64,000 nucleotides of DNA. Source: Candidatus Wildermuthbacteria bacterium. Lineage in GTDB: Bacteria; Patescibacteriota; Minisyncoccia; Minisyncoccales; UBA10102. Below are positions 12,381 through 61,985 of this stretch, one piece after another. The notes below the pieces were generated by a model that was given only the letters and a program-made list of their open reading frames with translations, was not told the DNA's origin and did no database searches. Position numbers and translations under genes: made by a program. The first letter of the stretch is position 1. Each line of letters begins with the position of its first letter. The stretch lies in the NCBI GenBank assembly GCA_016181405.1, contig JACOZJ010000005.1:25309-89308 (forward strand). Reading direction: 5' to 3'.

Positions 12381-12384
12381 TTTT

Positions 12385-12783: not shown

Positions 12784-12788
12784 ATTTT

Positions 12789-14492: not shown

Positions 14493-14496
14493 TAAC

Positions 14497-15087: not shown

Positions 15088-15116
15088 TTACCACAAAGGA
15101 AGGCTGAGATCTAGCT

Positions 15117-37563: not shown

Positions 37564-37719
37564 ATGGTGAAGGCGAATACCCAAGGTGAATACGTATGCG
37601 AGCAATGCGGCTTTCGGTACGAAACCGAAAGCCGCGCCCGCCAGTGTGAGAATTGGTGTAGAGAACATAAAAGCTGCAATCTTGAGATTATAGCGCACGG
37701 GAAACCACCCGAAGAGTGA
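37564..37719 (+). CDS. small zinc-ribbon-like protein
   Basis: MVKANTQGEYVCEQCGFRYETESRARQCENWCREHKSCN... has CxxC plus a CxxxC/H pattern. Its stop overlaps the ccdA GTG (GTGA). Confidence 0.45.
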   Translation: MVKANTQGEYVCEQCGFRYETESRARQCENWCREHKSCNLEIIAHGKPPEE

Positions 37720-38546
37720 GCGTTAGTATGGAACCAATCAGCTTTGCCTTTATTTTCTCTGCTTTTGTTGCTGGTATTGTCACGTTTTTTGCGCCGTGCA
37801 CTATGCCTTTGGTGCCGGGGTATTTAAGTTTTATTAGTGGAGCTTCGGTCGCGGAGCTGCAGAATCCAAAAAGGGCGACGCGGGCGCGCGCAAAAATATT
37901 TTTCAATGGCGTTTTGTACGTTATCGGCTTTAGTGCTGTTTTTATTTTATTTGGAAGCTTGTTTGGTCTCGGCGGCTCGATATTTTTCCCGTATCGAACG
38001 CTATTGATAAAGCTAGGCGGAATTTTTGTCGTGCTATTCGGGATAGTGTTGCTCATCCCGGCGGTTACTGGAGTTACAAACGGGAAAATAAATTTCCTTA
38101 GGATTTCTTTTTTGCGCTTTCTTGCAGCAGAACGCCAAGTACGGGCTGCCAATAAATTTATACCCGGAAAACCCATAAGCTCACTTTTGTTTGGCGGTGC
38201 TTTCGCGTTGGGGTGGAGCCCCTGCGTGGGGCCAATATTAGGAGTGATTCTTACTTTGGCTGCTTCTTCTGCCACGGTGGGACAAGGTGCGTTTTTACTG
38301 TTTGTATTTTCATTGGGGCTTGCTACTCCATTTTTACTTACGGCGCTTGCGATTGGTTGGGCTTCCACTTATTTTGGGAAAATCGCGCGATACCTCAACT
38401 GGATTTCTCTTTTTGGTGGAGGATTTTTGGTCTTATTGGGAATAATGATGGTAACGAACAACTTTCTTTTTTGGATTGCCTGGATTTACGGTTTTTTTGA
38501 CTTTTTCGGCATCAATTACGAAGGGGTCTTGCTTGATTTGCTTTAA
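37716..38546 (+). CDS. ccdA: cytochrome c biogenesis CcdA/DsbD-family thiol-disulfide transporter
   Basis: FFAPCTMPLVPGYLSFI and a second SPCVGPILG motif, with about 6-7 TM helices. The start is GTG at 37716 or ATG at 37728. Confidence 0.85.
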   Translation: MSVSMEPISFAFIFSAFVAGIVTFFAPCTMPLVPGYLSFISGASVAELQNPKRATRARAKIFFNGVLYVIGFSAVFILFGSLFGLGGSIFFPYRTLLIKLGGIFVVLFGIVLLIPAVTGVTNGKINFLRISFLRFLAAERQVRAANKFIPGKPISSLLFGGAFALGWSPCVGPILGVILTLAASSATVGQGAFLLFVFSLGLATPFLLTALAIGWASTYFGKIARYLNWISLFGGGFLVLLGIMMVTNNFLFWIAWIYGFFDFFGINYEGVLLDLL

Positions 38547-45582: not shown

Positions 45583-46275
45583 ATGGAAAACTACAAAAGT
45601 CTGTTCGTTCCTGCATCAATTCTTGGAGCGGGAGTAATCATAGCAGTTGCGGTCTTCGCTACCGGAGGCCTGAATATTCCTGCCCAGCAAGGTTTGTCCG
45701 CGCAAACAGGAGGTGACTTGCCCGAAGATAACAAGGTTGCTAGTCTAGTCCCTACCGTAAGCGCCGGAGACTATATTCGCGGTAATCCTTCAGCTCCTAT
45801 TACGATTATTGAATACTCTGACTTCCAGTGTCCGTTTTGCAGGCAGTTTCACCCATCAATAGTACAGGCGTTAGGGGAATATGGGGATCAGGTGAGGTGG
45901 GTATATAGGCATTTCCCGCTTGATCAAATTCACTCTGAAGCAAGGCCGGCGGCAGAGGCCGCAGAATGCGTGGGTGAGCAAAAGGGTTCAGAGGGTTTTT
46001 GGCAGTTCGCGGACGCGATGTTTGCAAATCAACAGCGCTTGGGTAACGCGCTCTATCGAGAAGTCGCAGAGCAAGCTGGAGTCAATATGGCTCAGTTTGA
46101 CGCATGCGTGAGCGCGCACACATACGCAAATAAAGTAGAAGCGCAACTTCAGGAAGGCGTGGGTTTTGGCATAACTGGTACGCCCGGAAGCTTCGTAAAT
46201 AATACTCCTATTCGGGGTGCGCTTCCCTATGCCAACTTAAAAGCAATCATCGATGCAGAATTAGGAAAACTATGA
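45583..46275 (+). CDS. DsbA-family thioredoxin-fold protein (membrane-anchored/secreted)
   Basis: An N-terminal TM helix, the FQCPFC active site, and GTPGSFVN (cis-Pro region). Confidence 0.8.
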   Translation: MENYKSLFVPASILGAGVIIAVAVFATGGLNIPAQQGLSAQTGGDLPEDNKVASLVPTVSAGDYIRGNPSAPITIIEYSDFQCPFCRQFHPSIVQALGEYGDQVRWVYRHFPLDQIHSEARPAAEAAECVGEQKGSEGFWQFADAMFANQQRLGNALYREVAEQAGVNMAQFDACVSAHTYANKVEAQLQEGVGFGITGTPGSFVNNTPIRGALPYANLKAIIDAELGKL

Positions 46276-46949
46276 AAAGTATTTTTCTTTGGGGTGGAGT
46301 AGGTGTCGCGATTGCGGCCGGGATTTTTCTGGTTCTTTCTTTTGCTACTCCTCCTGCTCAAGACCAACAAAACGATTTAGCCTCCCCACTTTCCCTTCCT
46401 GTTTCCGCGCGCGACAATATCAAGGGGAATCGTGATTCTTCATTGGTGTTGGTGGAGTATGGCGATTTCCAGTGCCCCGCATGCGCCGCGTATGTTTCCC
46501 TTATTAAGCAGTTGGAGCAGGAATTCGGCAGCGAAATAGCGGTTGTGTATCGTCATTTCCCTTTGCGGCAGATTCACCCGAATGCGGAACTTTCAGCGCG
46601 AGCGGCACAAGCAGCAGCTCTCCAGGGAAAGTTTTGGGAAATGCATGATGTTCTGTTCGAAAAGCAGTCTTCGTGGGCGAAAATATCCAACCCCGAGGAT
46701 ACGTTCGCAGAATACGCCGTTTCTGTGGGTTTGGACGAACAGCAATTTCGCAACGACCTGAAATCAAATGAAGTGCGCGATCGCGTACAGGAAGATTATG
46801 CGTCCGCGCTTGCAGATGGCCTAAATGGTACTCCCTCTTTTTTCTTTAGGGGGGTACGGATTTCAAACCCTCAAACGTATGAACAATTCCGCCAGCTTAT
46901 TTCCTCGGCGCTCGGAGAACATGGAAGCTCCAAGGAAGCCGCAGAGTGA
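46272..46949 (+). CDS. DsbA-family thioredoxin-fold protein, second paralog
   Basis: An N-terminal TM helix, the FQCPAC active site, and GTPSFFF. ATGA overlap with the upstream gene. Confidence 0.8.
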   Translation: MKSIFLWGGVGVAIAAGIFLVLSFATPPAQDQQNDLASPLSLPVSARDNIKGNRDSSLVLVEYGDFQCPACAAYVSLIKQLEQEFGSEIAVVYRHFPLRQIHPNAELSARAAQAAALQGKFWEMHDVLFEKQSSWAKISNPEDTFAEYAVSVGLDEQQFRNDLKSNEVRDRVQEDYASALADGLNGTPSFFFRGVRISNPQTYEQFRQLISSALGEHGSSKEAAE

Positions 46950-47400
46950 ATCGGCGCCCAAATGGCTGGTTTTTGCTATGCTGGGCTTGAGTTTCGCGGG
47001 ACTTCTCGATGCTGCTTATCTTACAGCCAAGCACTACCTCGGGTTTGAAATACCCTGTTCCATTTTGAACGGATGTGAGCAGGTCTTAAGCAGTCAATAC
47101 GCCACCGTATTTGGGATACCCGTGGCGCTGTTCGGAGCTTTTTACTACCTTGCGGTTTTGCTTTTGATTGTCGCGTTTCTTGATCGGAAAAACGCGGTAT
47201 TTCTGAAGGGGGCTGTACTTTTGCCAATAGGAGGATTTTTAGCTACGCTTTGGTTCCTGTTCGCGCAGATAGTTTTGCTGAACGCGCTTTGTTTCTACTG
47301 TTTGGTTTCTGGCTTATTGACTACATCTTTGTTTGCCCTATCAGTTTATTTCATCTGGCATGGATATTTTGAAGGGTTCCGGAGAAACGGAAACATTTGA
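46921..47400 (+). CDS. vitamin K epoxide reductase (VKOR) family protein
   Basis: Starts at the ATG at 46921 (MEAPRK...). A loop Cys pair (PCSILNGC) and a CFYC CxxC in a TM helix, with 4 TM helices. Confidence 0.8.
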   Translation: MEAPRKPQSESAPKWLVFAMLGLSFAGLLDAAYLTAKHYLGFEIPCSILNGCEQVLSSQYATVFGIPVALFGAFYYLAVLLLIVAFLDRKNAVFLKGAVLLPIGGFLATLWFLFAQIVLLNALCFYCLVSGLLTTSLFALSVYFIWHGYFEGFRRNGNI

Positions 47401-49005: not shown

Positions 49006-50529
49006 GTGATGATGAGAGCCGTACAAGAAAGCAGTGTGCAGCATTTGAAGGTAAGTCCCAACTTTGGACAGCCTCCTGACTATTTATTTCGACCGGACAT
49101 TCAAAGCTTTAGGAAAGCTTGGTTTCCGCAAACATACGCGATTTGGGAATTCTTTTCCATAAGTTTCCTCGTGAGCGCACTCGCATTCTTTTTTCTCTTT
49201 GAGTGGCCTGTCTTAGTGACTTTGTCTGGGCTTATCGCTTTTTTCTACCTGGGACACATGGTTTTTAAATTGCTGGTTGTGCAACGCTCTTTGGCAAAAC
49301 CTTTCCTTACATTTTCCAAAGAGGAAATTGTTTCGTTGTCAGACGAGGAACTTCCCCTGTACACCATTTTGATACCTTTATACCAGGAAGCGGAGGTCGT
49401 GTGGCAGATTCGGAAGGCAATGGAAGCGATTGATTATCCGAAAGCAAAGCTTGAGATACTTATTACATTGGAGCAATACGATTACGCAACGCAAGAGGCA
49501 ATAGCAAGAGCGGATTTTCCTTCCTATTTCCGTATCCTTTTGCTTCCGGATGTGCCCCCAAAAACAAAACCGAAAGCATTAAATGTAGCGCTCTTGCGGG
49601 CGAAAGGAGAATTTCTGGTTATCTATGACGCTGAAATAATTCCCGATCCCGACCAGTTAAAAAAAGCAGTGCTTGCGTTCCGGAAACACCCGGAAATTGC
49701 ATTTCTCCAAACGCGGCTTGACCACTATAATACGGACCAGAATATCCTTACAAAACTTTTCAATATCGAATTCAACTTTTACTACGATTTATTTCTTCCT
49801 GGTCTTCAAAAATTCAGATTTCCTCTTCCGCTTTCCGGACATAGCACGCATTTCAGGCGTTCTGCCATTGAGGAAGTAGGGGGGTGGGATCCTTATAACG
49901 TGGCAGAAGATTGTGATATAGGCATCGTGCTTTATCGACACGGGTATCGTTCCGAAATTCTTGATTCGGTAAGCAAAGAAGAAGCTACTACCACCCTTCC
50001 TGCTTGGATGCGCCAACGATCACGCTGGATGAAAGGTTTTTTGCAGTCCTCTATTGTGCATCTTCGGCATCCGCTTGAACTCAAAAAAGATTTAGGGGGT
50101 TGGATAAACTTTACTGCGTTTCTGTTTATTGTTCCTGGAACGGTTTTATTAAACTTTCTGAATTTATTTTACTGGCTATTGCTTGTGGGGTGGTTTGTCA
50201 CATATTCTGTGTTTATCCAAGAGCTTTTTACTGGGCCGATTCTCCCTATTTCAGTAATTTCATCTTTGGGCGGGAACGCTCTCTTTGTATACTTTAACCT
50301 CATCGGCTCTTATCGCCGGGGAAAGTATGGATTGGTAAAGTACGCACTCTTATCTCCATTCTATTGGATTTTACTTGCTGTGGCGAGCGGCAAGGCCGTA
50401 ATCCAATTGTTTACGAAGCCATATCATTGGGAAAAGACGGCCCATGGAACGCATCTTGCCCAGGTGAAATCGCAAGCAGCCAGCAAAGAGTCGAGTTTGG
50501 GAGAAATGCCAATAGAGTTTCCCGCATGA
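49006..50529 (+). CDS. family 2 glycosyltransferase, processive (cellulose/chitin/PNAG-synthase-like) with flanking TM helices
   Basis: YTILIPLYQE, VIYDAE (DxD), VAEDCD and QRSRWMKGF (QxxRW). N- and C-terminal TM helices are present. Confidence 0.8.
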   Translation: MMMRAVQESSVQHLKVSPNFGQPPDYLFRPDIQSFRKAWFPQTYAIWEFFSISFLVSALAFFFLFEWPVLVTLSGLIAFFYLGHMVFKLLVVQRSLAKPFLTFSKEEIVSLSDEELPLYTILIPLYQEAEVVWQIRKAMEAIDYPKAKLEILITLEQYDYATQEAIARADFPSYFRILLLPDVPPKTKPKALNVALLRAKGEFLVIYDAEIIPDPDQLKKAVLAFRKHPEIAFLQTRLDHYNTDQNILTKLFNIEFNFYYDLFLPGLQKFRFPLPLSGHSTHFRRSAIEEVGGWDPYNVAEDCDIGIVLYRHGYRSEILDSVSKEEATTTLPAWMRQRSRWMKGFLQSSIVHLRHPLELKKDLGGWINFTAFLFIVPGTVLLNFLNLFYWLLLVGWFVTYSVFIQELFTGPILPISVISSLGGNALFVYFNLIGSYRRGKYGLVKYALLSPFYWILLAVASGKAVIQLFTKPYHWEKTAHGTHLAQVKSQAASKESSLGEMPIEFPA

Positions 50530-52205
50530 AACAAATTCCTCGCCTTCTTTTTTGGATATCAGAGAGGGGAGAATACTTCCTTGCGGCGTTCGGCGTCGCG
50601 CTTGCGACCTGGATGGCAAATTACGTTTTCCGGCTCGATTTGACGCGGGCGCTTACGGATCAAAGCGCACATTTGAATTTTGCCCGTCTTACCATAGACA
50701 GCGCGACTCCGGGCATAAGCCAGCTTGGGTTTTGGCCTCCTCTTTTGCATATTTTGCTGGTACCTATAACCGGAATGGTTGAATCACTCTATCGAAGCGG
50801 TCTGGCTGGCTTCGTAGTCCTCCTGCCATTTTTTATATTAGGATCGATATTTCTATATAGAACCCTTTTACTGATTACGAAGCAAAAACTGCTTTCTTTG
50901 ACAGGGGCTATCACGTTTTTGACGAGTCCCTACGTACTCTACTATTCTGTAACTCCAATGATGGAAGTGTTGTTTTTAGCAAATCTTATGGGGGTTGTGT
51001 ATTTTTTTACCCGATGGTTCTATGAGCAAAAAATTCATCTTCTTATTTGGGCTGCAGCATTTGTAGTTCTTGCGACACTCTCAAGGTACGAAGGATTTAT
51101 CCTTATTCCCATTGGCGCATTTCTAGTATGGTTTTTTCTTTGGCGGCAGAAGAAGCAATCTGAAGAGATTGAAGCAGCCCTCGTTCTTTTTCTGTTTCTT
51201 GCTTCTTGGGGCGTTCTGGCGATAGGTTTGTACGGCTGGATTTATGGGGGGACACCTTTTGCTTTTATGGGTGGCTGGTGGATTCGTGATTCTGAATATT
51301 TCCCCACGCAATATAATATTTTTGCTTCACTGCGGTATGCGCTCAACGCTTCTTTTTATGTAATCGGGAAACCTCTTGTGTTGTTCTCTGTGATTGGTTT
51401 GCCGGCCTTATTTGTTCTCGCCAGAAAAAATACTGTTGCCATAGCTGTCTTACTGTTGTCGGTCAGCCCCTTTTTTATGATTGTCATAAGTTTATTCCGG
51501 GGGTATCCGCCGATTATGGTTCCCGACTTGCCGCCCTTCGGCCTCTTCTTTAACGAACGCTACGGGCTTACCTGGATCGGGTTTGCGATTGCCTTTCCCT
51601 TGGTGCTTGCTTCTTTTTTCTCCCAATATCTTTCAAGAATCTCTCCCTTTTTAGCGAGAAGCTTTACCTCTGTAGTCTGCATTGCATTTTTGTCGTTCTC
51701 CATTGCTCATTTTCACCAGAAAGTGTTTACAGAAGAATTTCGGGAAATCCGAATGAACCTCGGGGTGGATGGAACAGATCAAGATGAGCTTACACGAATA
51801 CTGTCTGTACGATACGACTACGGGAAAATCCTGATCACCAGAACCATTAACGATGGTTTGGTGAACGAATTGGGCATTCCTCTGAAAAACTTTATCTTTG
51901 AAGCTAACAATCTTTTGTATCAGCAGACTATGGAAGAGCCCTGGCTTTTTGCAAGGTGGGTAGTAATGGCCAAAGAACAGGAACCAATTTCAGAAAGGTG
52001 GGAAGATTCCGAGCTATTCCACAGGTTTTATGAGCCTGTGGCAGAGAATGAAACGCGGAAACTCTATAAGGTAAATGAAGATGCGCTCGGCAGAATGCTC
52101 GAAGAACACGGGTATAATGCAAGGGCAGTCCCATCGTTGAGAGAGGATACGAAACCATGGAATGCGCAGACAGTGTATTACGATATTCGAAATGAACATT
52201 TGTAA
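50526..52205 (+). CDS. polytopic membrane protein, GT-C-like (ArnT/PMT-type) tentative, with a C-terminal soluble domain
   Basis: Starts at the ATG at 50526, overlapping the GT2 stop (ATGA). About 12 TM helices. The family assignment rests on architecture only. Confidence 0.4.
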   Translation: MKQIPRLLFWISERGEYFLAAFGVALATWMANYVFRLDLTRALTDQSAHLNFARLTIDSATPGISQLGFWPPLLHILLVPITGMVESLYRSGLAGFVVLLPFFILGSIFLYRTLLLITKQKLLSLTGAITFLTSPYVLYYSVTPMMEVLFLANLMGVVYFFTRWFYEQKIHLLIWAAAFVVLATLSRYEGFILIPIGAFLVWFFLWRQKKQSEEIEAALVLFLFLASWGVLAIGLYGWIYGGTPFAFMGGWWIRDSEYFPTQYNIFASLRYALNASFYVIGKPLVLFSVIGLPALFVLARKNTVAIAVLLLSVSPFFMIVISLFRGYPPIMVPDLPPFGLFFNERYGLTWIGFAIAFPLVLASFFSQYLSRISPFLARSFTSVVCIAFLSFSIAHFHQKVFTEEFREIRMNLGVDGTDQDELTRILSVRYDYGKILITRTINDGLVNELGIPLKNFIFEANNLLYQQTMEEPWLFARWVVMAKEQEPISERWEDSELFHRFYEPVAENETRKLYKVNEDALGRMLEEHGYNARAVPSLREDTKPWNAQTVYYDIRNEHL

Positions 52206-52253: not shown

Positions 52254-55200
52254 ATGTTGGTAAAAATCTTCTTTCTCTCTCTATTCGTTTCAGTCGGGAT
52301 TATGATTCCTTTATTGAGCTATGCTTTACCAAGCGGGTTTCAGATTGAAACCGTCACAAGCGGATTGCAGCTTCCCACAAGCATTGCATTTGCGCCGGAT
52401 GGCCATATTTTTGTGGCGGAAAAATCAGGGGCAGTGCGCATCGTACATGATGGTGTTTTAATGGATGCTCCCTTTTTACAGCTGCAAGATGTAAATGATT
52501 ATGGGGATCACGGAATATTGGGAATCGCGCTTGACCCTGACTTCGAGAATAATGGATGGGTATATTTGAGCTATACGTATGAAAATAACCCCGCAAACTA
52601 CGAAGGCCCCAAAACAGGCCGTATCGTGCGCGTAAAGGCAGAGGGAGATATGGCAGACATGAATACGCTCGAAGTGCTCGTTGGCACCGTAGGAGGAACA
52701 CCAACAGCTCCTTCGTGTGAAGACTTTGAAGTTACGGAAGATTGCATCCCTTCAGATGACAAAAGCCATACTATGGGAGGATTGCGATTTGGTCCCGATG
52801 GCAAGCTGTATGCGACTCTTGGTGACGGCGCGAGTTTCGATTTTGTGGATCCCCGCGCCGAACGAGCACAGAATATCGACAGTTTGGCAGGAAAAATGCT
52901 GCGTTTGAATACAGATGGCACTGGCCCCTCGGATAATCCTTTCTACAACGGCGACCCTAGCGCAAATCGTTCAAAAGTTTGGAATTATGGGTATCGCAAC
53001 GCATTTCGGTTCAATTTTAATCCTTCGAACGGCGAACTGTATGTGGGGGATGTTGGCTGGTTCACATGGGAAGAGATCAATAAAAGCATCCCGGGAGGAA
53101 ACTATGGGTGGCCGTGCAGGGAAGGAGCGGTCCAGAATCCTGGGGGATATACATGTGTTGCAGAAAACTATGTGGATCCCTTGTATGCGTATGGGCACGA
53201 TGCTACTTCCGGGGCTTCGGTAACTGCTGGCGCGTTTATCTTCAACGCTGCGTATCCCGCGCAGTATCAGGGCAACTATCTTTTCGGTGATTTTACGCAG
53301 AATTGGTTAAAGCTGATGGTGCTTGATGCAGATGGGCATCATGTAGTTTCAGTAGATCCTTTCTCGGACGATGCGGGGGGACCTGTAGAGATTGTTTCAG
53401 GGCCAGACGGGCTTATCTACTATCTTTCTATTTACGCCGGAGAATTGCAAAGAATTACGTATACGACAGGAAACCGAAATCCGGAAGCGCGTGCGGCGGC
53501 AAATCCAACCGCGGGGTTGGTGCCACTTTTTGTTTCTTTCTCAAGCGTGGGATCAAATGATTTAGATGGCGACTCTTTATCCTTTTCATGGGATTTTGGC
53601 GATGGGGTTACCTCTGCCGAGGCAAACCCGACACATACGTATGAAACAAATGGAACATACGAAGCAGTCCTTTCGGTAAATGACGGCAATGGCGGAATAG
53701 GTACGAGTACGATTCAGATTGTGGTAGGAAATGAAAGGCCAACCGCGCAGATTACGAGCCCCCCAAACAATTCAACGTATCGCCCGGGGCAGATTATCCC
53801 GCTTGTAGGGCAGGGAACAGACCCGGAAGACGGCAATCTTCCGGAAAGCGCATATTTCTGGCGAATTCTGGAGCACCACACTGCGCATATTCATATTCTG
53901 CAAACCTTTACGGGCACCGCAAATCCAAGTTTTATAGCGCCAAGCGAAGAGGATGCTGATATATACGTTGAGGCTGAACTTACTGTTACAGACAGCATTG
54001 GCTTACAAGATACAACCAGCATTGATCTTCGCTTGGCGCCTCCGCCTACCGTAGAGCCCCATCATGTGCAGACTGTTTTGGATAATCCAAATCCTGTAGT
54101 TGAAGAACAGCTTTCGGCAACAACTACGATAACGAACGCCGGTACCGAGGACGCTATTTTGGTAGATCTTGAAATTTATAACGCCGCGGGGCTGAAGGTG
54201 GCCCAGCAGTTTTACGATAACGAAGTCATTCCTACCGCTACCACCAAAGATTACACGATTTCTTGGACCCCACAGGCAGCGGGGAATTATCGCATTGCCG
54301 TGGGATTGATTCATACAGGATGGCAAGGACTCTATGAATGGACAAATGAAGCGAAGCTTTTCTCGGTGGGAGAATCGAATCCGACGCCGACTCCGAACCC
54401 CAGCGGAAGCGATGCTTTGGTATTCGATGGAGTGGACGACTATGTCGATGTGGACGATTGGGATATCGAAGAGCCGAACTTTACCATTGAGGCGCGGTTT
54501 CGCGCTGACCGCGCGACAGGTACCCAACGTTTGCTTTCCAAGGCGCGGGGCGAAGGCACCGCAGATCAGTTATGGATGCTTGGCATTCGGGACAACACTT
54601 TGCAATTTGCGCTGGAAACTGGCGGCGTGGTGGATGTACTTGAAGGAGGTACGATAGCGCAAGGGGAGTGGACGCATGTTGCAGCTGTGTATAATGGGTC
54701 GGAGATGCGGTTATACCAGAATGGTTCTTTGGTGGGCTCGCTTTTAAAAACAGGAGCCATTACAGAAGATAGAACTAAAAAGGTGTGGATCGGGGATAAT
54801 CCGGATACTGGTTCTCACGCTTTTGCAGGCGTGTTAGATGTTATGCGTGTGTGGAATGTTGCGCGTTCTGACGCACAGATAGCCAGTACCCAAGGGAACA
54901 ATACTTCTTCAGAAGATCGAGCTGGCCTTATCAAGGATTGGACTTTCGACGAAGGGTTTGGGCAGGATGTACTCGACCGGTCAAACAGCGGTCACCATGG
55001 GCGTTTGGGGTCTACTCCGGGGGGCGACGAAAATGATCCTTCGTGGGAGTCGGGTGGTCCGACTGTGATGACCGGCACGTTTGCGCCTCGGCACCAAGGA
55101 ACCACCGCGCAAGACATGGTAGATCATTATAGGATATCGTCCTCCGTAGAGAATACCGGCAGTGACCCTGGCCATCTTATTGTTGATATTGAAGTATATG

Positions 55201-55835
55201 ATGGGGTGGGAGCGCAGGTGTTTCAGCGGTATTTTGACGGAGTTACGTTGCAGGTGGGAGAAACACGGAGTTTCTCGATTGCTTGGACGCCGCCAGCTTC
55301 TGGACAGTATCGTGTTGCCGTAGGACTTATCGAGTTGCGATGGGCAGGGGTGCATGAATGGGTGAATGAGGCGGCGCTTATTGATACCACCCAACAGCCG
55401 CCGCCACAGTCTACTGATATTTTCACAGATGCGTTGGCTCCCGGCTGGGCAAGCTGGTCGTGGGAAACGGATGCAACTTTTGTTTCTGCAATCGAGGTGG
55501 AGTTTGCTCATCAATGGGGAGGACTATATCTTCACCACGATGCCTTTGACACGACCGGCATGAATACCCTGAATTTTTCCATTTCCGGTGGGAGCAGCGG
55601 CGGGCAGGATCTTCAGATTTTTGCGTTCGACGAAGCAGGAAACGCTCTCGCGCAAAAACGATTGTCTTCGTATCTTCCAGAGGCATTGCAACCGAATATC
55701 TGGTATAATGTTTCTATCCCACTCGCGGATTTACAAGTCGTAAGCGGATCTATCGTAACGGGGATTTCGATTATGGGCGCGTCAGGGAATATTGAACCAA
55801 TCTTTTTCCTTGATGATATTCGTTTATCTTCCTAA
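52254..55835 (+). CDS. large secreted multidomain protein: glucose/sorbosone-dehydrogenase-like beta-propeller, PKD domain, LamG/ConA-like domain, additional Ig-like repeats
   Basis: Signal/TM N-terminus. LPSGFQIETVTSGLQLPTSIAFAPDGHIFVAEKSGAVRIV (GSDH), FSWDFGDG...HTYETNGTYEAVLSVNDG (PKD), LVFDGVDDYVDV...EWTHVAAVYNGSEMRLYQNG (LamG). An internally duplicated about 110-aa unit occurs (ITNAGTEDAILVDLEIYN... / VENTGSDPGHLIVDIEVYD...). Confidence 0.75.
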   Translation: MLVKIFFLSLFVSVGIMIPLLSYALPSGFQIETVTSGLQLPTSIAFAPDGHIFVAEKSGAVRIVHDGVLMDAPFLQLQDVNDYGDHGILGIALDPDFENNGWVYLSYTYENNPANYEGPKTGRIVRVKAEGDMADMNTLEVLVGTVGGTPTAPSCEDFEVTEDCIPSDDKSHTMGGLRFGPDGKLYATLGDGASFDFVDPRAERAQNIDSLAGKMLRLNTDGTGPSDNPFYNGDPSANRSKVWNYGYRNAFRFNFNPSNGELYVGDVGWFTWEEINKSIPGGNYGWPCREGAVQNPGGYTCVAENYVDPLYAYGHDATSGASVTAGAFIFNAAYPAQYQGNYLFGDFTQNWLKLMVLDADGHHVVSVDPFSDDAGGPVEIVSGPDGLIYYLSIYAGELQRITYTTGNRNPEARAAANPTAGLVPLFVSFSSVGSNDLDGDSLSFSWDFGDGVTSAEANPTHTYETNGTYEAVLSVNDGNGGIGTSTIQIVVGNERPTAQITSPPNNSTYRPGQIIPLVGQGTDPEDGNLPESAYFWRILEHHTAHIHILQTFTGTANPSFIAPSEEDADIYVEAELTVTDSIGLQDTTSIDLRLAPPPTVEPHHVQTVLDNPNPVVEEQLSATTTITNAGTEDAILVDLEIYNAAGLKVAQQFYDNEVIPTATTKDYTISWTPQAAGNYRIAVGLIHTGWQGLYEWTNEAKLFSVGESNPTPTPNPSGSDALVFDGVDDYVDVDDWDIEEPNFTIEARFRADRATGTQRLLSKARGEGTADQLWMLGIRDNTLQFALETGGVVDVLEGGTIAQGEWTHVAAVYNGSEMRLYQNGSLVGSLLKTGAITEDRTKKVWIGDNPDTGSHAFAGVLDVMRVWNVARSDAQIASTQGNNTSSEDRAGLIKDWTFDEGFGQDVLDRSNSGHHGRLGSTPGGDENDPSWESGGPTVMTGTFAPRHQGTTAQDMVDHYRISSSVENTGSDPGHLIVDIEVYDGVGAQVFQRYFDGVTLQVGETRSFSIAWTPPASGQYRVAVGLIELRWAGVHEWVNEAALIDTTQQPPPQSTDIFTDALAPGWASWSWETDATFVSAIEVEFAHQWGGLYLHHDAFDTTGMNTLNFSISGGSSGGQDLQIFAFDEAGNALAQKRLSSYLPEALQPNIWYNVSIPLADLQVVSGSIVTGISIMGASGNIEPIFFLDDIRLSS

Positions 55836-55838
55836 CCA

Positions 55839-56981
55839 GTGAAGTTCCCTCTTCTTTTTATAGTGCTTTTTCTCGCAGCAGGGGTTTTTGTCGTCGCCGA
55901 CCTTATGGCTTGGCATACTCTCTTCTCTGGAATTTCAGAGGAACAGAGGGAGGAAGAGATAGTTCAGGAAAATGAGGAAGAACAGCCCCAAGAGGGATAT
56001 TCTTTATTGCCAATACTCCGAGAGTTGCCCTCATTGCTCCGGAATTCCCGTGAAGGCGAGGAGGAAATTCCTGCGCCGCAACCTACGCCAGTGGCGTATA
56101 CTTGTAAAGAGATATTAACCAATTCTCCATTTTTCCGATCAGATTCTTTGCAGGCCTTTATGATAGAAGTAGCATTGCGCGCTGAAGGGAAAGAAGAGAT
56201 TGCCAACCAATTGCAAGCGATATCTTGCGTGCCGCAAGGCATATGGGTGAATGGAAAAAATCCAGGTTGGGAGGTGGAGCGCGTGAAAGAACTTGTCGAG
56301 AAGGCAAATCTCCAGGGGAAAATCCCTGTCTTTGTAGTCTACGATGGGCCCAATCATGAGGATTCAGGATGGCGCTTCGTTGAGAGCGGCAAAAACTACA
56401 GAGAGTGGATTCTTCTTTTCGGCAACGCTGTAGGGAACGCGCGGGCTTGGATTATTTTAGAACCAGACGCGTTGCCCTTAGCCTTTACCTATTCGTCTGC
56501 AGAACGTGAAAAGAGATTTCTCGAGTTAAAGAGTGCTATTCAAACTCTCAAACAAACAAGCCCATCGGCTAAAATATATCTTGATGCTGGGCACAGTCAG
56601 TGGAAGCCGCCTGAAGTAATCGCGGAATTTCTTCAGAAAGCAGGTGTTGCGCAGGCCGATGGGTTTTCACTGAATATCGCGAATCACCAGCCAGTAAACG
56701 AACAAGTTGCATATGGGAAAGCTGTTTCCCAACTACTGGGAGATGCGCACTTTGTTATCGATACTGGGCAAAGCGGCAAAAAGGTAGAGGGACAACAATG
56801 GTGTAATGCAAGAGGGCGGGCGATAGGAAATCTTCCGACTCTGGATACAAGGGATTTTCTGATTGACGCGTTTCTTTGGGTAAAACCCCCGGGTGAGTCT
56901 GATGGGACATGTAATGGTGGGCCCCCTGCCGGAAAATTTTGGCTCGATTACGCTTTACAGCTTATCGCAAACAAGTCCTAA
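55839..56981 (+). CDS. glycoside hydrolase family 6-like protein (cellulase fold), membrane-anchored
   Basis: WIILEPDALP (GH6 EPD signature), YLDAGHSQW and FLWVKPPGESDG. The first signature is modified (VVYDGPNHEDSG instead of ..RDC). GTG start and an N-terminal TM helix. Confidence 0.7.
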   Translation: MKFPLLFIVLFLAAGVFVVADLMAWHTLFSGISEEQREEEIVQENEEEQPQEGYSLLPILRELPSLLRNSREGEEEIPAPQPTPVAYTCKEILTNSPFFRSDSLQAFMIEVALRAEGKEEIANQLQAISCVPQGIWVNGKNPGWEVERVKELVEKANLQGKIPVFVVYDGPNHEDSGWRFVESGKNYREWILLFGNAVGNARAWIILEPDALPLAFTYSSAEREKRFLELKSAIQTLKQTSPSAKIYLDAGHSQWKPPEVIAEFLQKAGVAQADGFSLNIANHQPVNEQVAYGKAVSQLLGDAHFVIDTGQSGKKVEGQQWCNARGRAIGNLPTLDTRDFLIDAFLWVKPPGESDGTCNGGPPAGKFWLDYALQLIANKS

Positions 56982-57298: not shown

Positions 57299-58372
57299 AT
57301 GACATTCAAAAAAATTATCGGTTCTGTTCTTCTTCCAGTGTTCGCACTGGGATTGTACACGTTTCCACAAGGAACTTTCGCTAAGTCCGGTGGAGATGTA
57401 GAAATTACCAACAACAACTCCGCTGTCGTGACTAATTACGTGAAGGTGGAAGCGGAAACCGGCGATAATCAGGCAAATGGCGGTAATGGCGGCGACGCTG
57501 GAAACGGCGGCGACGGTGATAACGCTGGTGATGGTGGTAATGGTGGCGACGGCGCAGAGGGCGGTGATGCTGGCGATGGCGGTGACGGCGGAAATGGCGG
57601 AAACGGTGGCGACTCAAATGAAGAAGGTAATGGTGGCGATGGCGAAGATGGTGGTGACGCTGGCGATGGCGGCGACGCTGGAAACGGCGGCGACGGCGCA
57701 GAAGGCGGTGAAGGTGGAAACGGCGGCGACGGCGCGCAAGGTGGTGAGGGTGGTGCCGGCGGAATCGGCGGCATTATTGACACCGGCGACGCGACTGCCT
57801 TAGCTTTGGTTGGAAATGATGTGAATTCCAACAATACCACTGTACGCGGCTGTGGCTGCGACGATGAGGAAGATGGTGGCCATTGGGGACACCGAAGACA
57901 TCGTGGTGAGGGCGACGTAGAGGTTGTAAACAACAATTCTGGTGTTGTGGCCAATACCGTAGAGGTTGAGGCAGAAACCGGAGAAAACACCGCAGACGGC
58001 GGTGATGCCGGCGACGCTGGAAACGGTGGCGATGGCGCCCAAGGCGGTGATGCTGGAAACGGTGGCGATGGCGACGAGGGTGGTGAAGGTGGCGCAGGCG
58101 GCGATGGCGGCAACGGTGGTGAAGGTGGCGATGGATGGAATGGCGGGCAAGGCGGTGATGGTGGTGAAGGATGGAATGGCGGCAAAGGCGGTGATGGTGG
58201 TGAAGGTGGTAATGGTGCAGCAGCTGGCGACGGCGGCAACGGTGGTGACGGCGAAGCAGGCGGTGATGGCGGTGAAGGAGGAGGCGATGGTCGTATTACG
58301 ACCGGAGATGCCGACTCTACAGCTGCTGTCGTAAATGTTGTAAACCGCAACGTTACACGCGTTCGCAGATAG
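57299..58372 (+). CDS. secreted Gly/Asp/Asn-rich repeat protein built from two 'N-x-N...TG-x-N / TGDA' modules
   Basis: Signal peptide. VEITNNNSAVVTNYVKVEAETGDNQANGG, then about 100 aa of GGD/GGN/GGE, then IDTGDATALALVGNDVNSNNTTV. The same order then repeats (VEVVNNNSGVVANTVEVEAETGENTADGG ... ITTGDADSTAAVVNVVNRNVTRV). Confidence 0.7.
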   Translation: MTFKKIIGSVLLPVFALGLYTFPQGTFAKSGGDVEITNNNSAVVTNYVKVEAETGDNQANGGNGGDAGNGGDGDNAGDGGNGGDGAEGGDAGDGGDGGNGGNGGDSNEEGNGGDGEDGGDAGDGGDAGNGGDGAEGGEGGNGGDGAQGGEGGAGGIGGIIDTGDATALALVGNDVNSNNTTVRGCGCDDEEDGGHWGHRRHRGEGDVEVVNNNSGVVANTVEVEAETGENTADGGDAGDAGNGGDGAQGGDAGNGGDGDEGGEGGAGGDGGNGGEGGDGWNGGQGGDGGEGWNGGKGGDGGEGGNGAAAGDGGNGGDGEAGGDGGEGGGDGRITTGDADSTAAVVNVVNRNVTRVRR

Positions 58373-58460
58373 TTTCTCTGAAGGTTCCATCCGCCTCATC
58401 GGCGGATGGGCCTTCACGTATGCCTTTGAGGCTTTACTCAAAAGCATATGGGAAGGCATT

Positions 58461-58916
58461 ATGAAATTGTTTCACTATACATTCTTAGCGCTACTTGTAA
58501 GCTTTGTATTGGCGCCAAACGAGGCTGAAGCAACAACGGTGCAAAATGAAGTTTCGGTACGCGCCTCGACAGGAGGGAATTCGTCAGCTGGGCAGGTAGT
58601 TGAAGGAGAAGCACGAGCTTCGGTATTTATCGAGACAACTGTTGATGGGGAAGTGGTTCAGCATGTGGAAGAAGAAAAAACAGGCACGGGAGGAGAATCA
58701 GTTGAAATAAAAAAGGAGGTAGAGTACAAGAGCGATATAGCGGAAGTAGAAATAGAAACAGAGGCAAGCGTTGAAATTCAAGAACAATCTGATTCAACAA
58801 CCGTAAATCACGAGGTCGAACAGAGCCAAGAAGAACAAGAGAATAAAAAGGAAAGCCTGCTGATAGCTTCGATTGTCGGATTTTTCCGAAAAATCTTCAG
58901 CTGGTTTCTCGCATAA
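58461..58916 (+). CDS. secreted acidic protein with one half-module and a C-terminal hydrophobic tail
   Basis: Signal peptide, VQNEVSVRASTGGNSSAG, a Glu-rich centre, and the C-terminus LLIASIVGFFRKIFSWFLA. Confidence 0.55.
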   Translation: MKLFHYTFLALLVSFVLAPNEAEATTVQNEVSVRASTGGNSSAGQVVEGEARASVFIETTVDGEVVQHVEEEKTGTGGESVEIKKEVEYKSDIAEVEIETEASVEIQEQSDSTTVNHEVEQSQEEQENKKESLLIASIVGFFRKIFSWFLA

Positions 58917-58922
58917 AAAGGT

Positions 58923-61900
58923 ATGAAGAAATTAGTAAAAACAACAGTAATATGTTTTCTCTTAGTGGGATTGCAAGCGCCTGTCGTGAGTTTGCCGTTT
59001 GAGGCCTTTGCGCAGGAAAGCGATCCGCAAGTGGAACAAAAGGCAGAGGAAAAAGCGCCTGATGGGAAAGATGGCGTGAAGGGGGTGGACGGCGAAGATG
59101 GTTCAGCAGGACAGGATGGGGAGTCTGGCGACGAGGGGCAACCTACAGAACAACAGCCTGCGCAGGATGGTGAAAATGGTGAAAACGGCGATCCTGGCGA
59201 GAGCGGCGAAGCTGGTGGTGAAGAAGATGGCCAGAACGGCGGTGATGCGACTAACGGCCAGATAGGCGGTGATGGAGAAGACGGCGCAGGCGGTGCAGAG
59301 GGTGAAGATGGCCAAGATTCTCCCGCGGATCAGGAAGAATCTTCCGAAGGAGATACTGTTGTTGAAACTGGCGACGCAACCTCTGTAGGCCAAATCCAGA
59401 ATACTGGAAACACAAATGTGGTGGCTGGGAACGATCCTTTGATTGCGCAAGACGAGGAACTCCCGCCGTTGTGTTCCGATAAAACAAGAAAGGATGAGGG
59501 CAAGGAAGGAAAAGAGAGTAAGGCTGAAGAGGAGGAAGGTGGCGAGGAAGAGGTGAGGTGCATTGAAGAAGATGAAAGCGGGGGCGATACAGAAGTAGAA
59601 AATCAAAATGCCGCCACCGTAGCAAACACGGCAGATATTCAGGCAGATACCGGCGACAACGAAGCGTCGGGAAACAATGGAAGCAGTACGATTGATACGG
59701 GTGACGCCACCGCGATACTCGATGTGTTTAACTTAGTAAATACAAATATTATTGATTCAAACGGATTAATCGTTCTTCTTTCGAATCTCAAAAAACAGCT
59801 TCTCGATTTTGATTTGCGAAAATGGGCTCCATTTATGGATGGTTACAATGGAAGTTGCGGGGATGGATGCTATCGTTTTGGGGATTTGGAAATACAAACT
59901 AAAAATGATGGCAGTATTTCCAACAGCATCGTAGTACGGGCGAACACCGGCGGAAACGAGGCTTCGGGGAATGCGGGAGATGCAACCATTGAGACCGGAG
60001 ACGCGTATGCCGCAGCGAACGTCATCAACTTCGCGAATACCAATATTGTGAATTCCAATTATTTACTGTTTATTGCCAATAACTTTGGTTCTTTCATGGG
60101 GGATATCGTGTTTCCAAATTCGTCATCCTTCTTTTCATCTTTGTTCTCTGCGCCTGCTCAAGTATACGACGAAACTACAATCGAAAACACCAACAACGCA
60201 GCCATTTCAAATACCGTGGAAGTGGGGGCTGAAGCAGGCGGAAACGAAGCGAATGGCAATGGAACTTCGATTATCCAGACAGGGGATTCTTCTGCCGCGG
60301 CAAATATATTCAACCAGGCAAATGTGAATTTGTTCGGAGGGAATTCATTTGTGGCGCTTATTCGAGTAAGCGGAGACTGGTCTGGGAATGTGTTTGGATT
60401 GCCAGAGGGGATTTCTTGGTCACAAACGCCAGACGGAATTATGCTTTATTCAGACGATATGAATATTGGCGGAATGAGTTCTTTGTCGGAGCCTCCGCCC
60501 TGCGAGGAGTGCACCGAGGAATCTGAAGGTGAGAAGGCTGGAAAAGGCAGTAAGGCGGAGCACTCGGAACTCTCCGTAGAAAACACGAATAATGCTACCA
60601 TTACCAACGACATTCAAGTCTTTGCGCTTACGGGCGACAACCAAGCAAATGGCAATGGCAAGGGCTCCTCGATCCAAACGGGAAAGGCGCAGGCAGTAGC
60701 AAATGTGGTGAATATTGCCAACACCAACGTTATCGGGAAAAACTGGCTGTTTGCGATATTTAACATACTGGGGGACTTCAAGGGGAACATTAGTTTTGGG
60801 AGGCCAGACTTGTGGATTGGTTCACGCGCGGAAATTGTAAACGATCCTGCGTTACCAGGCGACGAAATTACGTATTACCTTACAATAGCAAATAACGGTG
60901 ACGCTGTGGCACGCAATGTGCAGATAAAGAGCGTTTTCGACGATTTGCTCTTTTCTGCCGGGAGCGCCGAGGGCAGCTCGACGATTCGGGAAGGCGAAGT
61001 CACGTGGGATTTGGGTACGTTGCTTCCCGGGGAAGGGCGCGAAGTTTCTTTTTCGGGGAGTGTCCGGACCGATATTCCATTTGGAATTCATCCGTTTGTG
61101 AATACGAGCAGCGTAGGAGCGACCGAAAGTGATAATAACGCAGCGGATAATACCGATATTGTTGAATTGGCGGTGTTTCATGAGGATCCAAGCTCTGGAT
61201 CGGATTCCGAAAATGGAGGATCGGGCAGCGGTGAGGAAGGCAATACGTCCGATAACGGTGGTAATGGCGGAGATACAGGAAGTAACGGTGGCAATGCCGG
61301 AGGTGGGAATGGAGTCACTGGAGGAAATTCTGCGCAATCTTCGGGCTCTTCTGCTCCTTCAGCAAGTTCTAAACAAACTCCCAACCTTTGGGTGCGGAAA
61401 AGTTTTGCGGGCGAAGGAATCGTACAAGCAGGCGATTCTGTCGATTACACCGTGGTTGTCACGAACACGAACGGCAGTTCTGCGTATGATGCAGTTTTAG
61501 TCGACACGCTGAAGGATGGAGAAGGAGATGTTGTGCATGAGGAAGTTTGGGATTTGGGAGAGATTTTTCCTGACGAGGGAATCTTCGTGACGTATACAGT
61601 GGTATTCCAAGAGCGCGCGGAATCTGGACTCTATATAAACAATGCGCGCGTGGAAGCTTCAAACGCAATTTCGAATACGGCGCAAGTTGGAATTTCCGTG
61701 GAAGGCCAAGAGGCTTCAATAATTCCTCCTCTCGCGCTTGGAGAGTCAGCTCCGCTCCTCTCCTTCATGGACGAAGATGCCAAGGTCTTGGGGACAGAAG
61801 AATCAAGTGAAGAGTCCACATCCGCCAGTACGCAGCCATTGGTTAGCGGACGTGAACGCCAGCCGTTTCTCGCCTCTCTGGCAGAGAGCGCTCGGGGATA

Positions 61901-61985
61901 TAGCGGGTGGCTCGCGGCGCTCGGGGCAGCTTCCATCCTTTTGCTTCTTCTGCTCCTTGGGAGAAAAAAGTTGGGAGGGCAATAG
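58923..61985 (+). CDS. 1020-aa surface protein: acidic Gly-rich N-terminus, at least 4 'N-x-N...TG-x-N / TGDA' modules, DUF11-like repeats, C-terminal TM anchor
   Basis: Example module: EVENQNAATVANTADIQADTGDNEASGNNGSSTIDTGDATAILDVFNLVNTNII. PGDEITYYLTIANNGDAVARNVQI and GDSVDYTVVVTNTNGSSAYDAVLVD are DUF11-like. The C-terminus is ...WLAALGAASILLLLLLLGRKKLGGQ. Confidence 0.7.
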   Translation: MKKLVKTTVICFLLVGLQAPVVSLPFEAFAQESDPQVEQKAEEKAPDGKDGVKGVDGEDGSAGQDGESGDEGQPTEQQPAQDGENGENGDPGESGEAGGEEDGQNGGDATNGQIGGDGEDGAGGAEGEDGQDSPADQEESSEGDTVVETGDATSVGQIQNTGNTNVVAGNDPLIAQDEELPPLCSDKTRKDEGKEGKESKAEEEEGGEEEVRCIEEDESGGDTEVENQNAATVANTADIQADTGDNEASGNNGSSTIDTGDATAILDVFNLVNTNIIDSNGLIVLLSNLKKQLLDFDLRKWAPFMDGYNGSCGDGCYRFGDLEIQTKNDGSISNSIVVRANTGGNEASGNAGDATIETGDAYAAANVINFANTNIVNSNYLLFIANNFGSFMGDIVFPNSSSFFSSLFSAPAQVYDETTIENTNNAAISNTVEVGAEAGGNEANGNGTSIIQTGDSSAAANIFNQANVNLFGGNSFVALIRVSGDWSGNVFGLPEGISWSQTPDGIMLYSDDMNIGGMSSLSEPPPCEECTEESEGEKAGKGSKAEHSELSVENTNNATITNDIQVFALTGDNQANGNGKGSSIQTGKAQAVANVVNIANTNVIGKNWLFAIFNILGDFKGNISFGRPDLWIGSRAEIVNDPALPGDEITYYLTIANNGDAVARNVQIKSVFDDLLFSAGSAEGSSTIREGEVTWDLGTLLPGEGREVSFSGSVRTDIPFGIHPFVNTSSVGATESDNNAADNTDIVELAVFHEDPSSGSDSENGGSGSGEEGNTSDNGGNGGDTGSNGGNAGGGNGVTGGNSAQSSGSSAPSASSKQTPNLWVRKSFAGEGIVQAGDSVDYTVVVTNTNGSSAYDAVLVDTLKDGEGDVVHEEVWDLGEIFPDEGIFVTYTVVFQERAESGLYINNARVEASNAISNTAQVGISVEGQEASIIPPLALGESAPLLSFMDEDAKVLGTEESSEESTSASTQPLVSGRERQPFLASLAESARGYSGWLAALGAASILLLLLLLGRKKLGGQ

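Follow-up and report, generated by a model that had tools for sequence, protein, structure and literature searches.

A window of 64,000 nucleotides (nt), taken from contig JACOZJ010000005.1 of a Candidatus Wildermuthbacteria metagenome-assembled genome (MAG; Parcubacteria group, Patescibacteria or candidate phyla radiation, CPR), carries between positions 57299 and 61985 three adjacent genes whose products have one protein module in common. The three open reading frames (ORFs) are present exactly as a preliminary description of this DNA gave them: A357 (57299-58372, 357 aa), predicted to be a small secreted protein with two copies of the module, B151 (58461-58916, 151 aa), a small putatively secreted protein with a single copy, and C1020 (58923-61985, 1020 aa), a probable membrane-anchored fibrillar surface protein. 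We call the group the cassette, and the corresponding families A, B and C; all the features of the cassette described here lie on the plus strand. A gap of 88 nt separates A357 from B151 and one of 6 nt separates B151 from C1020. Each of the three proteins starts with a Sec-type signal peptide, as read from the sequence (aa 1-28 in A357, MKKLVKTTVICFLLVGLQAPVVSLPFEAFA in C1020). B151 is deposited at NCBI as MBI2098768.1, a 'hypothetical protein', and C1020 as MBI2098769.1, a 'DUF11 domain-containing protein'. Both are present in a collection of 15 billion proteins, whereas the exact A357 sequence is absent from it; the A357 gene was probably left uncalled in the deposited MAG, or called with a different start.

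The module is the common thread of the cassette. A hidden Markov model (HMM) built from the four C1020 modules alone recovers these four at 85-94 bits apiece, and also matches A357 (E 1.2e-7, 27.1 bits, in three stretches at the expected half-module places) and B151 (E 5.8e-4, 15.4 bits, aa 23-45), well above the top score of 7.5 bits reached by 600 shuffled A and B sequences that served as a control. The preliminary description had counted at least four modules in C1020 and two in A357, and both counts stand. Full modules occur four times in C1020 (aa 222-279, 321-378, 417-472 and 549-606), where the second half is present once more near the N-terminus (aa 142-168), while the two modules of A357 have their arms at aa 33-60/159-183 and 206-233/333-357. 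The Gly-rich turn takes up 5-7 residues in the C1020 modules; at the same position A357 does carry the Gly-rich tracts of about 100 residues that had been announced, of 98 aa and 99 aa. Two corrections are needed. What had been called a half-module in B151 appears in the B-family alignment as a compact whole module with two short arms, and the repeat as first drawn, although a genuine module, is a part of the actual C1020 unit, which extends over about 80-100 aa and adds a conserved hydrophobic hairpin such as NWLFAIFNILGDFKGNISFG.

As the preliminary description had suspected, the module belongs to no named family in the resources searched. No model of Pfam-A, NCBIfam or PHROGs falls on it in A357, B151 or C1020, and Pfam has no match on the head region, formed by the C1020 repeats, in 51 family members. 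Sequence and profile searches of the PDB with the module return low-complexity noise only, and no structure in the PDB or BFVD matches the modelled head at E <= 0.001 in Foldseek. A match of PHROG 8745 to C1020 (E 2.9e-10) would have suggested a phage tail fibre; it is driven by the acidic Gly-rich low-complexity N-terminus of the protein and was rejected, since a tblastn search of 50,697 phage records with the module region found nothing.

The fold of the module was approached in two independent ways. An AlphaFold2 (AF2) model of the C1020 head (aa 220-632, with an alignment of 61 sequences) is all-beta, with a predicted local distance difference test (pLDDT) score of 85.5 and a predicted template modelling score (pTM) of 0.85. 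Each modelled repeat consists of a 20-residue strand, the TGxN motif, a mini-hairpin of 3+4 residues around the Gly turn, the TGD motif, an 11-residue strand and then shorter strands. In the census, 1,123 repeat units were collected across 260 family proteins, and a mean-field direct coupling analysis (DCA), made without recourse to AF2, was run on 911 units (effective number of sequences, Meff, 868). Its top couplings line up in a single unbroken antiparallel ladder that runs from (5,57) to (28,35) with i+j = 63-65, and further ladders connect positions 49-57 with 61-69 and positions 60-69 with 72-80, the extension strands. These couplings are confined to the conserved Asn/Ala/Val face. The AF2 model and the DCA ladder together describe the module as a long strand-turn-strand beta finger with the Gly turn at its apex, the arms of which may be either hydrogen-bonded as a hairpin or packed face to face as an arch.

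Stacking of the fingers on one another is another matter. Same-column (i,i) couplings between repeats have a mean diagonal of 0.79 for repeats one apart vs 0.87 for adjacent ones; being as strong between non-adjacent repeats, they reflect phylogenetic signal and not contacts. Solenoid stacking was accordingly rejected as a conclusion from coevolution, in-register stacking being undetectable by this approach. The earlier notion of a 'beta-solenoid-like' architecture therefore survives in part: the all-beta, strand-turn-strand character holds, whereas neither in-register stacking nor a likeness to the amyloid proteins of curli or FapC, which is insignificant, could be upheld.

In A357, the first arm of module 1 (57395-57478, aa 33-60, VEITNNNSAVVTNYVKVEAETGDNQAN) aligns with all A homologues and is modelled by AF2 as a 20-residue strand with a pLDDT of about 70. 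It is followed by tract 1, a 98-aa apex insert rich in Gly, Asp and Asn (57479-57772, aa 61-158), and by the second arm (57773-57847, aa 159-183, IIDTGDATALALVGNDVNSNNTTVR), placed by the A-family alignment and AF2. A His/Arg/Trp patch and a Cys-Gly-Cys motif lie in the inter-module linker (57848-57913, GCGCDDEEDGGHWGHRRHRGEG), and none of the 24-25 aligned A proteins departs from the two Cys residues of this motif, C185 and C187. Module 2 opens with a first arm at 57914-57997 (aa 206-233, from AF2 and the module HMM), carries at its apex tract 2, a 99-aa insert rich in Gly, Asp, Glu and Asn (57998-58294, aa 234-332), and closes with a second arm that runs into the conserved C-terminus (58295-58369, ITTGDADSTAAVVNVVNRNVTRVRR, from the A-family alignment). 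The A family numbers 28 homologues of 105-263 aa, the full-length ones measuring 190-263 aa, and the 22-24 full-length homologues that were examined all share one architecture: a signal peptide, two fingers with Gly-rich apex inserts, the Cys-Gly-Cys motif between the fingers and the C-terminus NVVNRNVTRVRR.

Both tracts of A357 are Gly-rich and acidic. Tract 1 has 54% Gly and a net charge of -23, tract 2 has 57% Gly and a net charge of -19, and Asp and Glu make up 21-23% of either. The underlying DNA is a degenerate 9-nt GGY GGY GAY repeat, in which Tandem Repeats Finder detects periods of 9-90 nt (higher-order 18-90) with 60-86% matches. It is because of this degenerate repeat that ORFs of 61-357 codons are open over the tracts in five of the six frames (+2, +0, -0, -1 and -2), an openness already reported for the 57.46-58.30 kb region and seen here again. 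At the protein level, AF2 run on A357 with a 24-sequence alignment gives the finger strands a pLDDT of 65-79 and leaves both tracts at 37-41 and devoid of secondary structure. The PDB sequences closest to the tracts come from a low-complexity insert of Plasmodium and from engineered linkers of the GGS type. Runs of G-x-x reach 18 triplets, with mostly Gly, Asp or Asn at x and y, and Pfam Collagen has no match in the A357 tracts. A regular expression for the RTX-type nonapeptide (GGxGxDxUx) finds one match in A357 and none in C1020, and HemolysinCabind (PF00353) does not match at E <= 1; the calcium binding once proposed for the tracts is thus supported neither by the sequence motifs nor by the model.

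Compared across the family, the apex inserts reveal both constancy and freedom. A regex census of 587 modules is noisy and was used for the modal turn length, 7-11 residues in about 80% of them, and for the clear first-module inserts. In 24 other A proteins insert 1 has a median of 36 aa (range 16-56) and insert 2 a median of 44 aa (range 33-57), while those of A357, measured by the same A-family anchors, are 99 and 99 aa. Inserts are hence a constant of the A family, and their size in the window is a lineage-specific doubling. The Gly content of insert 1 in A homologues is 24-54%, and high in most; acidity is not conserved (0-28% Asp+Glu), and a sub-pattern, GGxGGxGG...TGGxGGNGGxGGxGG, is kept in all homologues. 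Pro/Ser/Thr-rich inserts are found at the apex of the first module in the large C-type protein of certain other lineages, and since these fall at the same place as those of the A family, the apex can be regarded as a permissive insertion site. In insert 2 of most A proteins (P0121-P0143) we also observed a Trp/aromatic and basic patch (RNRGFWWFLF, HHTPWWGWGWYG, SRSWSRWYRMMF), reduced in the window to two GWNGG motifs (58100-58180); it suggests that the tip of the second finger contacts a membrane or a glycan in a specific role.

The history of the tracts could be followed in one close relative, on the contig L013, whose B protein is 80% identical to B151. Its tract 2 is also 99 aa long and aligns with that of the window without a gap, at 84.8% identity. 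The synonymous divergence dS is 0.85, the non-synonymous divergence dN 0.074 and dN/dS 0.09, against a dN/dS of 0.34 in the structured remainder. Equal length and a dN/dS of 0.09 indicate that the tract is translated, selected and constrained in length, and therefore not a hypermutable contingency repeat. A side observation is that dS in tract 2 reaches three times the value in the structured codons alongside it (0.27), with similar dN (L013:1-594 vs window 57782-58372); elevated mutation, gene conversion among the GGN repeats and saturation of four-fold sites are all possible causes. Scans of genomes and of metagenomes for repeat-number polymorphism gave one relative each, the close A relatives P0144 and P0146 break off within the tract, and the length comparison among close relatives rests on L013 as the one informative case, for tract 2. 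The tract had been described as variable in length, which is true across lineages (16-57 aa vs 99) and not true towards this close relative (99 = 99 aa); by the refuting condition that the description itself had set, this part of it fails. Tract 1 does not lend itself to the same comparison because contigs break there: two independent contigs, L002 and L013, start at its edge or within it.

In B151 the signal peptide is followed by the compact module (58527-58646, aa 23-62), an acidic central part and, at the C-terminal end, an amphipathic helix (58854-58913, aa 132-151); module and helix are placed by aligning 8 syntenic proteins of the B family. The B family counts 23 database homologues, none of them named. 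The finger is also appended to other secreted proteins: upstream of a C-type gene at another locus (L003:1260-2384) lies a 374-aa protein without Pfam match and not of A type, which closes with one finger module whose Gly/Thr/Lys loop is short, at about 15 aa.

C1020 is the most elaborate of the three. Immediately ahead of its N-terminal second-arm half-module (59346-59426, aa 142-168, from the module HMM) it carries an acidic Gly-rich tract of its own of about 100 aa, overlooked in the preliminary description (59055-59357, aa 45-145), with a net charge of -30 and short G-x-x runs of 9, 6 and 7 triplets; the nine triplets form a perfect G-x-y series, GKDGVKGVDGEDGSAGQDGESGDEGQ. Pfam Collagen scores 18.9 bits on aa 47-98, under its cut-off of 27.2. 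The head proper (59583-60812), delimited by AF2, DCA and the repeat census, is made of four beta repeats of about 80-100 aa: R1 (59583-59828, aa 221-302), R2 (59877-60128, aa 319-402), R3 (60168-60413, aa 416-497) and R4 (60561-60812, aa 547-630). The linkers in the head contain Cys-x3-Cys and Cys-x2-Cys loops, observed in C-type proteins as CGDGC between R1 and R2 and CEEC ahead of R4, and C312 and C316 are nearly invariant in these proteins.

Beyond the head follow two stalk domains. Domain 1 is of the DUF11/CLIPPER type (60840-61163, aa 640-747; PF01345, E 1.1e-14, 55.1 bits with a cut-off of 24.6) and domain 2 of the DUF7507/CLIPPER_2 type (61380-61667, aa 820-915; PF24346, 25.9 bits with a cut-off of 27, and TIGR01451, 30 bits with a cut-off of 24); a low-complexity linker rich in Gly, Ser and Asn joins them (61185-61367, aa 755-815, from the sequence). 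In domain 2, residues K826, D861 and N906 reach a conservation of at least 90% in alignments of 101 and of 51 members, with a spacing similar to the Lys715/Asp748/Asn806 isopeptide triad of 9IFR (PMC12617251), and domain 1 has an Arg at the expected Lys position. The protein ends with an 18-residue hydrophobic transmembrane (TM) helix and a basic tail (61908-61982, helix aa 996-1013; WLAALGAASILLLLLLLG followed by RKKLGGQ). No LPXTG, PEP-CTERM or similar motif stands beside this helix, and NCBIfam sorting-domain models do not match. The DUF11-like domains, the TM helix with its basic tail and the lack of an LPXTG-type motif, all claimed beforehand, were each found again. As for the sortase or exosortase genes that had been proposed as a check, the search covered the window, where about 50 ORFs scanned with Pfam give no sortase-family match. 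The TM helix is preceded, at a distance of about 15 aa, by a motif, PFLASLAE (61860-61982, aa ~980-1020), which recurs as PFLAS[LVI] ahead of the TM helix in a subset of TM-anchored members (for example P0154, P0164, P0194, P0213, P0238 and P0262) and resembles the C-terminus of B151, LLIASIVGFFRKIFSWFLA (58854-58913, aa 132-151). Family members with PG-binding domains end in amphipathic FF..IF helices in its place. The motif matches no known sorting signal; a juxtamembrane helix is one possibility, and a processing or anchoring signal not yet recognised is another.

The head profile defines a large family: with clustering at 50% identity, 4,065 cluster representatives match it at E <= 1e-3, of which 1,817 reach E <= 1e-30. 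Its proteins are typically 800-1100 aa long, and named matches come from Vogel-, Woese-, Davies- and Roizmanbacteria, Saccharibacteria and unclassified Patescibacteria; two matches bear other labels, both on contigs shorter than 2 kb. Among the 51 members scanned for domains, 48 have DUF11/CLIPPER, 27 DUF7507/CLIPPER_2 and 12 PG_binding_1, and a TM helix with a basic tail ends 41 of 140 representatives according to a sequence heuristic.

Gene order is kept along with the proteins. The order A-B-C is found in the window and at five other loci (L007, L008, L010, L011 and L012), A-C in a Saccharibacteria MAG (L001) and in Giovannonibacteria (L009), A-C-B at one locus (L004) and B-C at two (L006 and L013). 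The B stop and the C start overlap by 4-26 nt or are 3-9 nt apart, and the flanking genes differ at every cassette locus. The cassette is thus conserved as a unit, in unrelated genomic contexts, across distant CPR lineages (Wildermuth-, Giovannoni-, Vogel-, Woese-, Davies- and Roizmanbacteria, and Saccharibacteria), and the three genes are conserved together as had been anticipated. Conserved order, tight B-C junctions and unrelated flanks are the pattern expected of the subunits of one structure. In Giovannonibacteria (L009:8494-11248), two proteins of about 450 aa with camelysin/TasA-type N-termini (a Peptidase_M73 match in the N-terminal part) are encoded after the C-type gene, and one of them also has SpaA_2 prealbumin-like domains; this pair may constitute a second surface-fibre system adjoining the cassette.

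Directly upstream of the cassette (52254-56981) are a family 6 glycoside hydrolase (GH6) and a 1193-aa secreted protein with a glucose/sorbosone-dehydrogenase (GSDH) beta-propeller and PKD, CARDB-like and LamG domains; farther upstream (49006-52205) stand a family 2 glycosyltransferase (GT2) and a PMT-like protein, and these genes together make up a stretch given over to envelope and secreted functions. The downstream neighbour of the cassette is an undecaprenyl-diphosphatase. A scan for promoters and terminators gave no signal exceeding chance. Elsewhere in the window, four genes (37716-38546, 45583-46275, 46272-46949 and 46825-47400) supply a full set for extracytoplasmic disulfide formation, namely a CcdA/DsbD-like protein, two DsbA-like thioredoxins and VKOR, which fits the nearly invariant Cys pairs of the cassette proteins (CGDGC, CEEC and C-G-C). 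A T5orf172 protein, an N6/N4 DNA methylase, a Clp-protease-like ORF and a ResIII helicase are grouped farther away (11697-17450, 18091-19104 and 24339-25715), in what looks like a restriction-modification or defence locus, with a patatin-like phospholipase and a VWA-domain protein nearby.

From the observed anatomy, families, synteny, fold type and constraint on tract 2, we picture the cassette as a Patescibacteria-restricted envelope system in which an anchored fibrillar head protein is joined by docking finger proteins with flexible loops, a picture to which we grant about an even chance. C1020 would be exported by the Sec pathway and kept in the membrane by its C-terminal TM helix and basic tail, while the two CLIPPER immunoglobulin (Ig)-like domains and the Gly/Ser/Asn linker would lift its head above the envelope; the Lys-Asp-Asn triad of domain 2, judging by its residues, belongs to the type from which isopeptide bonds arise. 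The distal end would then consist of a rigid all-beta head of four repeats and an acidic Gly-rich tail. A357, with its two fingers, and B151, with one, would be co-expressed and secreted, B being tightly or translationally coupled to C, and we infer that both could dock on the C1020 head or extend it by beta-sheet complementation through the shared finger, thereby generating a heteromeric tip. The acidic apex loops of about 100 aa, presumably flexible and unstructured, would form a polyanionic and hydrated fringe at the distal end. Such charged loops may reach a partner cell or a surface and act by electrostatic or cation-bridged contact, by binding counter-ions or by hydration. The surface location that the preliminary description had put forward is plausible, given the signal peptides, the DUF11/CLIPPER stalk, the TM anchor and the PG-binding domain of 12 of the 51 relatives.

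Some considerations speak against this picture. Adhesion and the surface exposure of the cassette proteins are deduced from architecture only, and the co-assembly of A, B and C from synteny and the shared module. The failure of AF2 to fold the tracts is weak evidence, since the alignment consists almost entirely of gaps over them and polyglycine-II folds rich in Gly are difficult to predict. The low dN/dS and the exact tract length could equally be compatible with a defined structure. Indeed, the GGD/GGN tracts might be a folded domain, either a polyglycine-II sandwich or a Ca2+-stabilised roll, offering a real binding surface at the finger tip. The GG-x periodicity, the 9-nt period of the DNA and the long G-x-x runs are in line with such a domain, and so are the selection and equal length seen with L013, the GGxGG sub-pattern of all A homologues and the Trp-rich patch conserved in insert 2; we take the tracts to resemble polyglycine-II proteins such as the snow-flea antifreeze protein, mycobacterial PGRS and phage gp38 adhesin tips. 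The AF2 scores of 37-41 without regular structure, the single RTX nonapeptide and the silence of HemolysinCabind and every other Pfam model point the other way, together with an acidity that drifts from 0 to 28% D+E, an insert length that ranges from 16 to 99 aa over the A family and the linker-like Pro/Ser/Thr-rich sequences found at the same apex in other lineages, and we regard a folded tract as rather improbable. That the stretch is an artefact, with mis-assembled or non-coding low-complexity DNA and a spurious 357-aa ORF, is far less credible still. Five open frames out of six, two independent contigs broken in tract 1 and the absence of the exact A357 from a protein collection that holds B151 and C1020 could raise this suspicion, to which several facts reply: conserved arms are in frame on each side of both tracts, 24 other full-length A proteins have the same architecture, tract 2 is colinear with that of a relative at a dN/dS of 0.09 and, over a length of 6,334 nt that takes in tract 2, an independent Logan contig agrees at 100% identity.

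Other readings concern the way the proteins relate to one another. They could be three independent paralogues that do not assemble, the finger being a ligand-binding unit, for glycans for example, in one anchored adhesin and two soluble matrix or decoy proteins. A module shared among differing architectures would agree with this, the A C-terminus and the B amphipathic helix could be separate anchoring devices, and the neighbouring genes encode other secreted carbohydrate-active or binding proteins (GH6 and GSDH-PKD-LamG); we nevertheless deem it unlikely in view of the fixed A-B-C order and of the tight or overlapping B-C junctions maintained in distant CPR lineages with unrelated flanks. Slightly less likely, and on a par with the folded tract, is a curli-like templated fibre in which A357 is the polymerising subunit with its fingers stacked cross-beta, the C1020 head acts as nucleator and anchor in the role of CsgB, B151 is a cap or adaptor and the Gly/Asp loops line the filament along one edge. 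In favour of this fibre, the cassette combines an anchored protein with small secreted ones, all with one repeat in common, the conserved Asn/Ala/Val-rich face with its invariant Asn and Gly recalls Asn-ladder solenoids, and every inward residue has two coupling partners on the other arm (sums 63 and 65), which fits face-to-face arch packing. FapC (9nqd, E 0.96, TM-score 0.06) and CsgA (8c50, E 6.3, TM-score 0.05) are even the top Foldseek matches in the PDB, but these values are insignificant and amount to no similarity. Pfam Curlin_rpt has no match at E <= 1, hhalign of the 911-unit module profile against the CsgA repeats returns a probability of 0.05-0.3%, no csgG/E/F-like gene occurs among the approximately 50 window ORFs scanned with Pfam and in-register stacking is undetected by coevolution; moreover, A has just two fingers, and 200 aa of loop would crowd a filament. 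With Pfam, hhalign and Foldseek all negative, a relationship to curli was rejected. A new filament, specific to the CPR and widespread there, in which A fingers stack onto C as a membrane- or wall-anchored nucleator and B caps or adapts it to yield a loop-fringed, host-attaching fibre, seems a little more doubtful again; if true, it would endow the CPR with a filament of curli-analogous logic, unrelated in sequence and fold.

The envelope system that we favour, with its anchored head and docking fingers, would bear on a poorly charted part of CPR biology. Patescibacteria may form a large share of bacterial diversity, and their cultivated members attach to other microbes; to our knowledge, few of their surface structures have been identified. 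The cassette is a candidate for the way in which CPR cells contact their hosts, and offers a concrete envelope or host-contact structure for study. Since Saccharibacteria carry it, it could be tested in strains that have become genetically tractable. Three families, the head repeat of about 100 aa, the two-finger A and the one-finger B, can be added to domain databases, at a time when a head family of about 4,000 representatives carries no domain annotation except DUF11. The cassette also illustrates how the apex of a beta finger accommodates low-complexity insertions of 10 to 100 residues under purifying selection.

Among known systems, the fibrillar adhesins are the closest. DUF11/CLIPPER has been described as their CnaA-like stalk domain, often with an isopeptide bond (Protein Sci 2025, PMC12617251), and like the CLIPPER-stalk adhesins of that work, C1020 combines a signal peptide with a distal domain outside the stalk, a CnaA-like Ig stalk and a C-terminal anchor, which is a TM helix here and PG_binding_1 in relatives. 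One of its stalk domains keeps the Lys/Asp/Asn triad. Unlike these adhesins, however, the cassette has just two stalk domains and no sortase-type signal, its distal head is an undescribed beta domain of four repeats without a homologue of known function, and two small co-encoded proteins reuse the head module. With curli (CsgA/CsgB) and Fap, the cassette shares the principle of anchored and small secreted proteins that are co-encoded and built on an Asn/Gly/Ala-rich strand-turn-strand repeat. It departs from curli by finger arms of 20-25 residues vs about 9, by a unit of about 100 aa with an extra hairpin, by the lack of any sequence, profile or significant fold match and of CsgG-type genes in the window, and by a host that is presumably monoderm.

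The Pam pili of CPR bacteria, assembled from Ig-like pilins by donor-strand exchange (bioRxiv 10.64898/2026.03.03.709456), provide another parallel, the cassette being likewise a CPR-restricted candidate surface system made of unannotated proteins. Membership of the Pam system itself was rejected, as the NCBIfam models of PamA, PamB, PamC, PamD and PamR miss A357, B151 and C1020 at E <= 1. The A357 tracts, for their part, resemble RTX, PE_PGRS/polyglycine-II and collagen-like tracts by their high Gly content, their 3-residue period and the Asp or Asn at x. They lack the hydrophobic motif position of RTX repeats, AF2 gives them neither a polyglycine-II nor a roll structure, with no such match among PDB sequences, and, unlike all these named Gly-rich regions, they sit at the tip of a beta finger and not in a separate domain. 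No prior description of the head repeat, the accessory families, the gene arrangement or the finger apex with its insertions was found in Pfam, NCBIfam, the PDB or the literature searched. What the cassette has in common with established systems is thus the CLIPPER-stalk fibrillar adhesin, and what it adds to them is the head repeat, the two accessory families, the three-gene arrangement and the insertion-bearing apex.

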